A stretch of DNA of 20,594 nt, from IMG/VR virus record IMGVR_UViG_2526164690_000051; one strand, 5' to 3'. The stretch is from a virus (Duplodnaviria; Heunggongvirae; Uroviricota; Caudoviricetes). Made by a program: the position numbers and the translations under genes. The notes beneath the pieces are model-generated. The model worked only from the letters and a program-made list of their open reading frames with translations, had not been told where the DNA came from and made no database searches. Positions 8,791 through 12,407 of this stretch are shown piece after piece. The number at the start of each line of letters is the position of its first letter. Within the stretch, counting starts at the first letter, position 1.

Positions 8791-9222
8791 TTAATCGTGC
8801 TCACCAGACAACCTCCTGAAATTACTCTGGTAAAATGCCAGTACACGCTGCATAACTTCGCTTTTCCGGCACTCGCGACAGATTATATTCAGGCGCCTGT
8901 CGTAGCGGCGTATTTCTCCGTCTGGTAATGACCAGATAAGGTCAGGATCAACCACAACCGTTTTTTTCACCTTTGCCCTGGATAGTTTTTTGCGGGCGTT
9001 TTGCCAGTCCTTACGGGCCTGCTCAGACAGGAATAATCCGTAGCCTGAATTGTAAACATCACCACTGGCGACCAGTTCTCTGGCGAGAGTGCTTATGTAA
9101 TACCTTGATGCACCGGTTTTAGCCTCCAGAGCCCGTAACGTCTCGCGACCGCTCAGACGTACAAGTTCAACAACCTGCCCTTTAATTTTTTCCCGCTCTT
9201 CTGGTGTAAATACTTTTGCCAT
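8791..9222 (-). CDS. hypothetical phage protein (HTH-like segment, C-terminal CxxC)
   Basis: ORF 8791..9237; start likely Met of MAKVFTPEE at 9222, six nt after GGAGG. Confidence 0.45.
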   Translation of the reverse strand: MAKVFTPEEREKIKGQVVELVRLSGRETLRALEAKTGASRYYISTLARELVASGDVYNSGYGLFLSEQARKDWQNARKKLSRAKVKKTVVVDPDLIWSLPDGEIRRYDRRLNIICRECRKSEVMQRVLAFYQSNFRRLSGEHD

Positions 9223-9237
9223 AGGTGCCTCCGGCAA

Positions 9238-10008
9238 TCACTTTTCCGACACAATACGACTGGAGGAATCGAAAATCTGTCGAACAATATCCCGGTGCTT
9301 GTTCAACTCCCGCAGCGCGGCGCAGACTCGCTCCCACTTCTGGACATGACTTTTCGCCCGACGCAGTTCACGGTTTGCCATATGCAGCGATGGTAAAATC
9401 AGGCCATTCGCTCGCGTTTCAGTGAACGATGGCAGTGACTGCACAAGGTCCGCCACAGTTTCTGTTTTAATTTCTTCCTGTGTTGCCGCGTCCTGTACTG
9501 GTAACGCAAAACCGGCTGGCTGAGGAAAGCCTTTACCAGGTGTTTTCGCTACCGATACAACTTTCGGCTCTGCTGGTAAATTACCGTCCGGCAGGCAGTA
9601 ACGAAATTTACCGTTCTGATTAACGCGTGCCAGCCGCCCCGTTGCGGTTACTACCGCCAGCGTGGAAGCAACCTTGCGAGTGCTGACACCGAACTTACTC
9701 GCCAGTTCCTCACACGTTTTAGCCCCCTCCTGACCGATAAACTCAATCATCATGTCAGCGGTAACTTTTTGTTCGCCCCCCCCGGTTAGCACATCCGGTA
9801 CTTCAGATTGTGCTGGCTGCTCTTCGGTTACCCCGGATTCACCTTCGCCAGCCAGAAACCAGGTGTGACCAGTTTTATCAACGACGCCATTTCTTTTCAG
9901 TTCCCACAGCTCGTTCAGTATCTCTTCACGACTGATATCAAGTCGCGCAGCAAGTTCTATGGATGTGGCTTTTCCCATTGCTTTCAGTGCGTCAAAAACA
10001 GTCTCCAT
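9238..10008 (-). CDS. hypothetical phage protein with two winged-helix-like segments
   Basis: ORF 9238..10059; start likely Met of [13 protein letters not shown] at 10008 after GGGAG. Two HTH-like stretches separated by an acidic linker. Follows the DnaC-like gene. Confidence 0.45.
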
Positions 10009-10030
10009 TAAATTTTTCTCCCGGTAAAAA

Positions 10031-10777
10031 TTACTTCGCAATTCCTGGCTGGACGACATTCGGACGCCAGCTCTCCCAGTTAAAATTCACCCATCGCCCG
10101 CCGTTCATGGTCATGCGATCCATAATCCGCTCGCCGAGCAATGTTTTCATGGCCTCATAGTTCAGGTTTGTCAGCATTCCCACGCTACGCATCGACGCTG
10201 TCCGTCGATCAATAATCTGGTGCAGTACCACCTGCTCGTTTTTCGTCTCGCGCTGAATGCCAATTTCATCAAGAACCAGCAGATCCACTTCGCACAGTTC
10301 CCGCAAAAATTTTTCGCCTGACTGCCCATCGTCATAGCTGGCGTGGAGGGCACTCATAACATCAGCCACGGTAACCACAATCACTGTCTGACCGTCTTTC
10401 AGCAGGCGATTCCCGATAGCTGCTGCTAAGTGGTTCTTCCCGGTACCAGGTTTTCCGCTAAACGCGAAATTTGTGCATCCGGTCATCAGTTCATCAGCGA
10501 TAGATTTCGCCTGGCTCAACGCGTATCGCTGACCGTCGTTCTGCACCTGGTAATTCGCAAACGAGCATTTACGGTGCAACGGCTGGATGCCTGAGCGATT
10601 CAGAATTTTTTCCACCCGCAACTGGCGATTCAGGCGGTTGATCTCCTCGCTACGTTTCTGGCCTTCAGCAAGTTGCCACTCGTGCCACTCCGCTACCGTT
10701 CTGAATGGGGCGGTTACATGTGGCGGAGCCAGTCTTCGGATACGTTCAAGAACGCCGCCTGCCGCAATATTTTTCAT
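10031..10777 (-). CDS. DnaC-like replicative helicase loader (YdaV-like)
   Basis: 248 aa. Walker [16 protein letters not shown] and Walker B LLVLDEIG in the DnaC/IstB arrangement. AGGGGG RBS. Confidence 0.8.
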
Positions 10778-10783
10778 GGTCAG

Positions 10784-11572
10784 TTACCCCCTGAAGCCTG
10801 GCGGGATCGCACTATCCGGTAACGAGACGGTGTTAACCTGTCGGAGCAACGTCTCAGGCCGAACACCTTTCGGCGCGAACAGGCCCTGGTATTCATTGGC
10901 GATACTGTGTCGAATCACCTGCTCAGGTGTAAAACCCTGCTGGCGGAATTTTTCCAGCTCCCGTATCGCCCCGTTAGCGCCCTGCTCCGTTCGAATCGGT
11001 TTTCGCAATGCCTGCCTGAACCGGACCCACTCATGCCAGAGTGTTTCCGGCAACCAATCGGGCAGCTCAATAGCCTCCGGCACAAATTTTTTAGACGCTC
11101 GTTTTTGGCGAGGGGGATTTAGGGGGAGATCAGTATTTATATCTTCCTCTTTCTCTTCCTCTGGTAACGCTTTTTGATCCATTTGTGTAACGCTGCCAGC
11201 GTTACCTTTTCGTTTCAGTTCGCGTATTTTTGTAACTCGCTCGTTTGTAACCGCCCGTTTTTTAGAGCTTTTCCCGTTATGACGTTCAAAGTTAGGTAGA
11301 GAAAGCCCACCGTCATTTTCGACCAGCCATCCAACCTGAATTAACGCATCAGCAAAACCAGCCATAAAAGTGATGCGATCTATTGCACTTTTTGTAACGC
11401 CGCGAGCGTTACAATCTGCATTACCGTCTATCATTTGTTGATCCGCCCATGCCCAGAAGCGAATAACCTTCCCTAATGCGGCATCTGGATCAATATTCAG
11501 AATCTCAGCAAGCCTGAATATTTCCGGCTTATCCGGCGTAATAACCTCGAGCTTTATCCAGTTTGAAGCCAT
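10784..11572 (-). CDS. phage replication initiation protein (O-like/YdaU-like)
   Basis: 262 aa immediately upstream of the DnaC-like gene. Contains two of the three GTAACGC-N5-GCGTTAC palindromes listed below. Confidence 0.55.
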   Translation of the reverse strand: MASNWIKLEVITPDKPEIFRLAEILNIDPDAALGKVIRFWAWADQQMIDGNADCNARGVTKSAIDRITFMAGFADALIQVGWLVENDGGLSLPNFERHNGKSSKKRAVTNERVTKIRELKRKGNAGSVTQMDQKALPEEEKEEDINTDLPLNPPRQKRASKKFVPEAIELPDWLPETLWHEWVRFRQALRKPIRTEQGANGAIRELEKFRQQGFTPEQVIRHSIANEYQGLFAPKGVRPETLLRQVNTVSLPDSAIPPGFRG

Positions 11573-11604
11573 TTGTTTTCACCTTGTAACGCTCGCAGCG
11601 TTAC
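11187..11604. repeat. three 19-bp palindromes GTAACGC-N5-GCGTTAC (11187..11205, 11394..11412, 11586..11604)
   Basis: Read directly: GTAACGCTGCCAGCGTTAC, GTAACGCCGCGAGCGTTAC, GTAACGCTCGCAGCGTTAC, spaced about 200 bp apart. Additional GTAAC half-sites at 11163..11170 and 11231..11250. Confidence 0.7.
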
Positions 11605-11649
11605 ATTTAACTGATACCGAACAAAACAATCCGGCACGATTAATTTCAA

Positions 11650-12072
11650 TCAATGCACTACGACAGAATCGCCGGACGACCCACCACCGCTGAAATGTGC
11701 TTTCCGGTAAACGGCCTGGACTGCATCATCATGCGCATCAATTGCCGTACTCAACGCTTCCTGCGCCGCCAGTAATGCACGGCGTTCCAAGGTATCGAAG
11801 ATGCAGAGTCGGTGACGCAGCTCGCGCGGAAGAATTGCCAGAACCGCAGGGATCAGTTTCTGAATTTTTTCCCTTTGCGCTTTCGTTTCACCTTTCAACC
11901 AACGGTGATAGATATTCTGCTGATTGTTCCAGTCCTTGCCTGGTACAAGGGGCAATTCGCCGCCCCCCTGGCGCAGATATTCTTCAGTAATTGCGTTAGC
12001 GACCCACGCCTGCCCTTTTTCGGCTGCCAGGGCTAACAACACTGATTCGATGTGCTCATGCCTGATTTTCAT
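11650..12072 (-). CDS. YdaT-like protein
   Basis: 140 aa beginning MKIRHEHI and ending VVVH, resembling Rac YdaT as I recall it. Overlaps the cro-like stop by 4 nt. Confidence 0.55.
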   Translation of the reverse strand: MKIRHEHIESVLLALAAEKGQAWVANAITEEYLRQGGGELPLVPGKDWNNQQNIYHRWLKGETKAQREKIQKLIPAVLAILPRELRHRLCIFDTLERRALLAAQEALSTAIDAHDDAVQAVYRKAHFSGGGSSGDSVVVH

Positions 12073-12311
12073 GAATCAACCGCTCCTATGCTGTTTTCGC
12101 TATGCTTACCGTCTGGGGGGAATACATCGTCAAGTCCACAATGAGCGCCAAGCCGATTAAGGGTAGAAACAATTTTTCTGCACTCCTCTAGTCCAGGGGT
12201 ACGAAAATTTGCTTCGTAATTTGCCAGTCGGCTTTGTATCCACCCTAACTGAACAGCAAGTTGTCTTTGAGACAGCCCAAGCTGTTTTCGATATGTTGAA
12301 ATTTTGTTCAT
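12069..12311 (-). CDS. Cro/YdaS-like XRE-family HTH protein
   Basis: 80 aa with HTH (LGLSQRQLAVQLGWIQSRLANYE); GGAGG RBS; divergent from the repressor gene. Confidence 0.65.
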   Translation of the reverse strand: MNKISTYRKQLGLSQRQLAVQLGWIQSRLANYEANFRTPGLEECRKIVSTLNRLGAHCGLDDVFPPDGKHSENSIGAVDS

Positions 12312-12407
12312 TGAAAACCTCCGATGACAATTTTAAACACATCTTGTGTTATATGGTCAAGCTGTTTTGTGTTTTATGTAAATCACGATTCGTGATACAA
12401 GGATGCA
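12312..12407. promoter_or_regulatory. divergent promoter/operator region of the immunity switch
   Basis: 96-bp AT-rich intergenic region containing perfect palindromes ACACA-TCT-TGTGT (12337..12349) and TCACGA-T-TCGTGA (12383..12395). Confidence 0.55.

Follow-up and report, generated by a model that had tools for sequence, protein, structure and literature searches.

Palindromic GTAACGC sites in and beside a prophage initiator gene: a conserved DNA element and probable replication origin

Three copies of a 19-base-pair (bp) palindrome, GTAACGC-N5-GCGTTAC, lie in and just upstream of the gene for a replication initiator in a 20,594-bp stretch of tailed-phage DNA (IMG/VR record IMGVR_UViG_2526164690_000051; this whole stretch is referred to as the window). 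The surrounding genes are all encoded on the minus strand, in the order Cro-like helix-turn-helix protein, YdaT-like protein, initiator and DnaC/IstB-like helicase loader (Table 1). Over 10784-11660 the window matches a prophage of E. coli O103 strain RM8385 at 100% identity; in many other E. coli, O157:H7 among them, prophages match it at 95-98%. The original prediction, made on the window alone, had placed the three palindromes about 200 bp apart, two of them inside the O-like gene and one in the intergenic region upstream, with further GTAAC half-sites nearby; all of this is borne out, in that the three copies are perfect, the gene layout is as described, and four such half-sites are found at the positions listed in Table 1.

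The palindromes are not a product of chance. The pattern GTAACGCNNNNNGCGTTAC has exactly three matches in the window when up to two mismatches are allowed, all three of them perfect, against a chance expectation of 0.07 from 100 dinucleotide-preserving shuffles, none of which contained three or more matches. The exact heptamer GTAACGC occurs 10 times in the window, where 1.65 occurrences are expected, and 7 of the 10 fall within 11164-11604; no other cluster of the word was found in the window or in the 6-kb loci of relatives. Neighboring palindromes are 207 and 192 bp apart, center to center, which puts the linker copy 399 bp from the upstream copy. Both in-gene palindromes share a reading frame and encode x-N-A-x-x-V-T. 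The upstream palindrome is located 32 nucleotides (nt) before the ATG, in a gap of 77 bp, and ends one base upstream of the ribosome-binding site AAGGTG. The start-to-start distance between the one-mismatch half-site and site 1 (12 nt) is the spacing seen throughout the family.

Table 1. Genes and sequence features of the initiator locus (window coordinates).
Feature	Position	Strand	Remarks
DnaC/IstB-like helicase-loader gene	10031-10777	minus	directly downstream of the initiator gene; IstB_IS21, E 5e-20; PHROG 50 (DnaC-like helicase loader)
Initiator gene, 262 amino acids	10784-11572	minus	N-terminal winged helix and basic helix; C-terminal half YdaU-/lambda-O-like
A+T-rich patch ATATAAATACT with GATC, then two C5 runs CCCCCTAAATCCCCC (coding strand)	11110-11141	minus	proposed melting region; mosaic junction with ydaU of the K-12 type
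Purine tract AGAGGAAGAGAAAGAGGAAGA (coding strand)	11142-11162	minus	pyrimidines on the plus strand; proposed unwinding/helicase-entry element
Terminal half-site GTAACGC (coding strand GCGTTAC)	11164-11170		encodes A-L-P; directly abuts the purine tract
Second in-gene (linker) palindrome, site 2	11187-11205		perfect match; codons 123-129, G-N-A-G-S-V-T
Degenerate half-site GTAACTC	11232-11238		one-mismatch member of the linker cluster
Degenerate half-site GTAAC-C-GC	11247-11254
First in-gene palindrome, site 1	11394-11412		perfect match; codons 54-60, C-N-A-R-G-V-T
One-mismatch half-site GCATTAC (coding strand GTAATGC)	11418-11424		12 nt upstream of site 1, direct orientation
Upstream palindrome GTAACGC-TCGCA-GCGTTAC	11586-11604		perfect match; gap between the YdaT-like and initiator genes
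YdaT-like gene	11650-12072	minus
Cro-like helix-turn-helix gene	12069-12311	minus

The initiator matches PHROG 2509, 'replication initiation protein', with an E value of 4e-89, and a PHROG 'O-like' match is limited to residues 77-236. The 262-residue protein matches no Pfam family at E <= 0.01, including the lambda O domain Phage_rep_O and DUF1376, the N-terminal domain of K-12 YdaU; its N-terminal half matches no NCBIfam family, and a profile of the N-terminal domain finds no solved relative among the PDB sequences. The N-terminal domain (approximately residues 1-121) was modeled as a winged helix with a long basic helix behind it, and a fold search with it returned only generic winged-helix DNA-binding domains with modest scores; it is an uncharacterized family, and the RefSeq label of the initiator's close relatives is 'hypothetical protein'. 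In the structure model, site 1 maps to a low-confidence loop of the winged-helix domain and site 2 to a disordered linker. The gene downstream of the initiator encodes a DnaC-like loader, a lambda-P-like protein or a DnaB-type helicase in 7 of the 8 relatives scanned, the eighth having no Pfam match, and a DnaT-like C-terminal domain is seen in some relatives; across loci, only the N-terminal domain is a constant partner of the palindromes. A search for DnaA boxes (TTATNCACA, with at most one mismatch) found none within 7491-12332, and the total for the whole window is below chance expectation.

Conservation was assessed in 80 loci from species-representative genomes together with 80 near-identical viral contigs. 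The N-terminal 140 residues of the initiator have relatives at 38-75% identity in many phyla, and a profile search with the N-terminal domain retrieved 10,521 cluster representatives, with the domain in N-terminal position in nearly all of the best 150. The same palindrome recurs at the same two positions of the gene, which counted from the start codon are about +148/+160 and +335 to +391, in most loci of Enterobacterales, Pseudomonas, Burkholderiales and Planctomycetes; Xanthomonas phage CP2 and phage TL-2011b have it too. The position of site 1 is retained in most of 78 loci, and the loci that keep the palindromes are only 40-70% identical to the window in protein sequence. The upstream copy (-32 to -44) occurs in the window, in loci L001-L003 and L005-L007 (E. 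coli, Shigella, Winslowiella, Serratia, and Pantoea) and in no other lineage; in Serratia it remains beside the initiator gene though one or two genes intervene before ydaT. The distance between the two in-gene palindromes ranges from 189 to 234 bp across the family without a single phase, so that strict helical phasing between them is unsupported.

Selection at site 1 can be separated from selection on the protein. Columns at this site were anchored through the protein alignment, and the palindrome itself therefore had no influence on their choice. The valine of site 1 is encoded by GTT in 60 of 70 sequences, compared with 15-30% at four other conserved valine columns; the asparagine is AAC in all 65 sequences (about 67% elsewhere), and the preceding glycine is GGT in 48 of 58 (6-36% elsewhere). 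Where the arms do change, they change in a compensatory manner, AAC/GTT becoming CAC/GTG (six loci), GAC/GTC (one locus) or TGC/GCA (one locus), and the amino acids shift to preserve the palindrome, N-V being replaced by H-V with GTG or by C-A. Across 71 distinct sequences, 86% of the cells in the arms of site 1 are paired, and the covariation score of the arms is 0.096 vs. 0.039 in shuffles, none of 500 of which reaches the observed value. Conservation of the palindromes in homologous prophages despite synonymous drift had been named in the original prediction as a check on their significance; they are conserved, and their codons are fixed.

Among 83 close relatives from E. coli and Shigella, the arms vary at 3 of 42 positions, whereas the spacers vary at 10 of 15 positions, compared with 94 of 493 positions elsewhere (p = 1e-4). 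Some variants of the spacers (11194-11198, 11401-11405, and 11593-11597) are reverse complements of one another (TGGCA, TGCCA), which hints at spacer inversion by hairpin or template-switch events.

The recognition word also changes in concert within a locus. When the word is GTCACGC, GTGACGC or GTTGCGC, the same variant is present at site 1, at the linker site and at the half-site before the purine tract, examples of the terminal half-site changing together with the palindromes being GCGTGACCAGAG, GCGCAACCAGAG, and GCGTGACCAGAGAAG. Concerted change of all the sites in a locus argues for a common sequence-specific reader, since independent hairpins need no shared sequence. A candidate for the reading residue lies in the basic helix of the initiator: wherever it can be aligned, residue 113 is valine, and once alanine, in loci of the GTAAC type, whereas it is lysine or glutamine in all GTCAC loci and methionine, asparagine or lysine in loci with other variants. 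GTCAC has arisen at least three times independently, the nearest relatives of loci L031 and L047 being of the GTAAC type, and the residue-113 pattern agrees in a protein-only check of 179 sequences, with three exceptions. Such a pattern would be expected if the basic helix reads base 3 of the half-site through residue 113. As judged from these alignments, nucleotide-level selection, concerted evolution of the sites and their covariation with the initiator are demonstrated here, and the view of the palindromes as a conserved DNA element that co-evolves with the initiator is well supported.

An invariant motif, F-x-R-H-N-G-x3-K-x-R, leads into the basic helix (initiator residues ~95-121; window ~11210-11290). 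A likeness of the system to basic leucine-zipper recognition, suggested by the basic helix and by the variant half-sites TTAC, TGAC, and TTGC with cores GTTAC, GTGAC, and GTTGC, is probably a coincidence because the spacing of the conserved residues does not fit the zipper motif.

In the segment of the gene that encodes the linker, the palindrome belongs to a tight array. The linkers of relatives contain 3-7 half-sites (at most one mismatch), with start-to-start spacings of 12 nt (88 cases), 11 nt (43 cases), and 23 nt (18 cases), and the array is convergent: half-sites of one direction precede those of the other, and the palindrome marks the point where the two runs meet. Neighboring half-sites are in direct orientation in 62 ++ and 53 -- pairs, which cannot form hairpins, and the linker palindrome is read in all three frames (32, 9, and 6 cases). 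The original prediction had described the spacing as unlike the tandem iterons of lambda, which holds for the three full palindromes and overlooks that the linker copy is a member of an array of half-sites spaced 11-12 bp apart. Purine repeats of the AGAGAAGAGAAGAG type follow the last half-site in most loci and, like the palindrome, are translated in all three frames, giving PEKRRE, PREEKRRE or QRREEK depending on lineage; the tract is also present in phages epsilon15, CP2, and TL-2011b. Beyond it the G+C content is 0.43-0.45 at the A+T-rich patch vs. 0.55-0.62 further into the gene, and a GATAT(A/T)AA...CCCC pattern is likewise found in loci L007, L009, and L022 and in epsilon15 and TL-2011b.

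Just past the A+T-rich patch, paired runs of C5-7 (CCCCCTAAATCCCCC, encoding P-L-N-P-P; window 11110-11127) recur in L007, L009, L022, L026, and L164, the last being ydaU of E. coli K-12, and may be another DNA-level element. Epsilon15 (L161) has a different half-site, GTCCGC(A)/GCGGAC, in two clusters at +52 to +106 and +330 to +375 of the gene; the second abuts the same CAGAGAAGAGAAGAGAAGAGAAGATATTAAACCCC sequence, and the first is placed differently in the gene from the first site of the window.

We consider it likely that the palindromes are double-stranded DNA sites bound by the prophage's own initiator and that, together with their surroundings, they form an origin located inside the initiator gene. 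From the arrangement of these parts we infer a pathway of binding, melting, loader recruitment, and looping. The recognition unit would be the 7-bp word GTAACGC, probably read by the basic helix (approximately residues 103-121) behind the winged-helix domain, and one palindrome would bind two initiator subunits head to head. The core of the origin would be the linker cluster (11164-11254), in which the palindrome and its flanking half-sites lie about one helical turn apart and which adjoins the purine tract and, as far as about 11110, the A+T-rich patch. Assembly of initiator on the array would destabilize the adjacent tract, and the C-terminal half of the initiator would bring in the neighboring DnaC-like loader together with the host helicase. 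The two outlying palindromes could serve as auxiliary sites that loop onto the core, and the upstream copy, beside the ribosome-binding site, could let the initiator damp its own synthesis. Two readings had been offered in the original prediction, an origin of the lambda kind and operators for the YdaT-like or Cro-like protein; the former is favored by conservation against codon drift, concerted change of the sites, covariation with an initiator residue, the purine and A+T-rich tracts and the downstream helicase or loader gene, and the latter lacks support. The element is a probable origin.

Several observations weigh against an origin of this design. The core in the window is minimal, consisting of one palindrome, one exact half-site and two degenerate ones, and the full palindromes, spaced at about 200 bp, do not resemble the tandem iterons of characterized origins. 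The A+T-rich patch is short, and its G+C content falls only to about 0.43. The correlation at residue 113 comes from a handful of independent switches, with the three exceptions among 179 proteins noted above, and the messenger RNA could fold into hairpins of about -14 to -16 kcal/mol. One subfamily, mostly from Verrucomicrobia, has the N-terminal domain and lacks both the palindromes and the purine tract, and these elements are therefore not obligatory for the domain. The loci of this subfamily (L025 and a subset of L037-L074) keep Thr109 and Val113 and retain only AACGTTAC-like remnants at site 1.

Of the other explanations, the most probable is that the sites bind the initiator but act mainly as autoregulatory operators, with replication starting elsewhere. 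Repression of its own gene is common for an initiator, only one base separates the upstream copy from the ribosome-binding site, and the outlying palindromes are isolated rather than tandem. A mainly regulatory role is nevertheless unlikely: outside Enterobacterales the upstream copy is absent, whereas conservation of the in-gene copies and of the purine tract reaches far more widely; a conserved array beside a purine tract, with an A+T-rich patch in several lineages, is not needed by an operator; and neither the 20.6-kb window nor the 6-kb loci hold a second cluster of the word. Autoregulation through the upstream copy is plausible as an addition to an origin, with which it is compatible. Operators for the YdaT-like protein, the Cro-like protein or a repressor are suggested by the nearby immunity region and by a dyad symmetry that would fit a dimeric helix-turn-helix protein, but the published YdaT footprint differs and the only near-match to a YdaT-box in the vicinity of the gene is found instead at 12062-12079, the gap between cI and cro carries different repeats, TTGTGTT(A/T)TATG, and the palindromes persist where ydaT does not adjoin, with methyltransferase or other genes upstream, and are also present in phages such as CP2 and TL-2011b; in Serratia the upstream copy is still beside the initiator gene although ydaT is one or two genes removed. 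Operators of this kind are very improbable.

The pairing of the arms invites a quite different account, in which the palindromes function as single-strand hairpins, either as messenger RNA stem-loops that affect translation or stability or as single-stranded DNA signals for priming or primosome assembly. The arms do covary in Watson-Crick fashion, local RNA folds are more stable than those of shuffles (z of -2.1 to -3.7), some relatives have a DnaT-like C-terminal domain, and the hypervariable spacers with their reverse-complement variants could reflect hairpin extrusion. Structure alone, however, requires neither one sequence shared by all the sites of a locus nor the tracking of that sequence by a protein residue; many half-sites are repeated directly and have no arm to pair with, wobble pairs are very rare among the mismatched cells (4 G-U vs. 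69 other), and no U-run follows the palindromes on the coding strand. Hairpins are for these reasons a distinctly improbable explanation. Rfam gave no relevant family match at E <= 1, and an intrinsic terminator was rejected, the only terminator-like match being antisense and within chance expectation: on the plus strand at 11187-11215, the linker palindrome followed by CTTTTCGTTT scores as terminator-like, with a match count that chance would give. A last possibility, that the palindromes have no role as DNA and simply result from a conserved peptide, G-N-A-x-x-V-T, or from chance, is scarcely credible. In the window the two copies inside the gene do share a frame and encode x-N-A-x-x-V-T, and the protein alignment shows the peptide to be conserved; codon choice is nonetheless fixed well beyond what the amino acids need and residues are even replaced so that the palindrome is kept, three frames are in use for the linker copy and for the purine tract alike, the third copy is non-coding, and both peptides fall in a loop or a disordered linker.

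An initiator-bound origin at this locus may, more tentatively, exemplify a very widespread and previously undescribed phage replicator, with over 10,000 protein cluster representatives and with members in Proteobacteria, in Planctomycetes and in phages such as epsilon15, CP2 and TL-2011b. Three elements would be overlaid on the initiator reading frame, namely a 7-bp word, convergent half-sites in an array, and a GA-repeat tract, with a single-residue code at base 3 (Val113 for A/T, lysine or glutamine for C/G) and with the GA tract as a possible new unwinding or helicase-entry element. No published description of these palindromes or of the purine tract was found in the literature, nor of such sites for ydaU or epsilon15. 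If the proposal is correct, it would provide many phage and prophage initiators of one large family, now annotated as 'hypothetical', 'primosomal protein I' or 'O-like', with an origin and with a function in DNA recognition; their DNA-binding domain has neither a Pfam model nor a solved structure. It would also be a case of overlapping codes, in which residues are replaced for the sake of a palindrome and one nucleotide motif is translated in all three frames, and it would mark positions in the gene where 'synonymous' recoding or annotation-based engineering would destroy replication. A specificity rule of one residue and one base could predict the sharing or avoidance of initiators among co-resident prophages of pathogenic E. 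coli (O103, O157), so that origin specificity and cross-talk would become predictable from sequence.

Four known systems invite comparison. YdaT of CP-933P and Rac has been footprinted on (A/T)TGATT-N6-AATCAA (PMC9986795, PMC11879457); the YdaT-box shares with the palindromes described here a dyad symmetry and a place in the same part of a Rac-like prophage, and differs from them in word and spacer (TTGATT-N6-AATCAA vs. GTAACGC-N5-GCGTTAC). In the window, CTGATTTTCATGAATCAA (12062-12079) is a YdaT-box with one mismatch that, as in Rac and CP-933P, overlies the start codon of the YdaT-like gene, and the A+T-rich gap between the repressor-like and Cro-like genes contains the direct repeats TTGTGTTATATG (12344-12355) and TTGTGTTTTATG (12367-12378), which are probably immunity operators unrelated to GTAACGC.

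Plasmid and phage origins of the iteron type consist of direct repeats bound by Rep next to an unwinding element. Like them, the proposed origin would have multiple initiator-specific words about one helical turn apart beside an easily opened tract, and its word co-evolves with the initiator; unlike them, its unit is only 7 bp, its array is convergent with a central palindrome and lies in coding sequence, and the region has no DnaA boxes.

The Rac prophage of E. coli K-12 contains a ydaS-ydaT-ydaU-ydaV module, and an origin, oriJ, is mentioned for it (PMC3945230, PMC11014345); no nucleotide-resolution map of oriJ was found, the oriJ papers found merely mentioning the Rac origin. The gene order Cro-like, YdaT-like, initiator, DnaC-like is shared with Rac, and the 3' 374 bp of the window initiator gene (10784-11157) are about 86% identical to K-12 ydaU, whereas K-12 YdaU has an unrelated N-terminal half and no GTAACGC palindromes in its gene. 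The homology to K-12 ydaU ends at the purine tract (11157), which argues that the N-terminal domain and its sites travel as one module. K-12 ydaU has a linker word of its own, TGTTCAAACA (two direct copies and one inverted), at about 390-535 of the gene, followed by A+T-rich sequence and CCCCCCCTAAATCCCCCCC; this region, directly after which the similarity to the window sets in, may be the core of oriJ.

The origin of lambda has four 19-bp iterons within gene O, on which dimeric O forms the O-some that recruits the P-DnaB complex (PMC3985674). The predicted origin of the window likewise falls in the linker of the initiator gene, between the N-terminal DNA-binding domain and the C-terminal partner-binding half; its sites are also of 19 bp with internal dyad symmetry, beside a tract predicted to melt easily; a helicase-loader gene comes next, or a lambda-P-like gene in some relatives; and domain and sites are exchanged together as a specificity module. 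It differs from lambda in that the N-terminal domain of the initiator has no Phage_rep_O match, the palindromes are dispersed (192 and 207 bp) and the core consists of convergent 7-bp half-sites at intervals of 11-12 bp, the A+T-rich patch comes after a conserved GA-repeat purine tract, one and the same recognition word persists across phyla, and one copy is located outside the gene at the ribosome-binding site. The proposed likeness to the lambda origin is one of function, the initiator not being a member of the lambda O family by the domain test.

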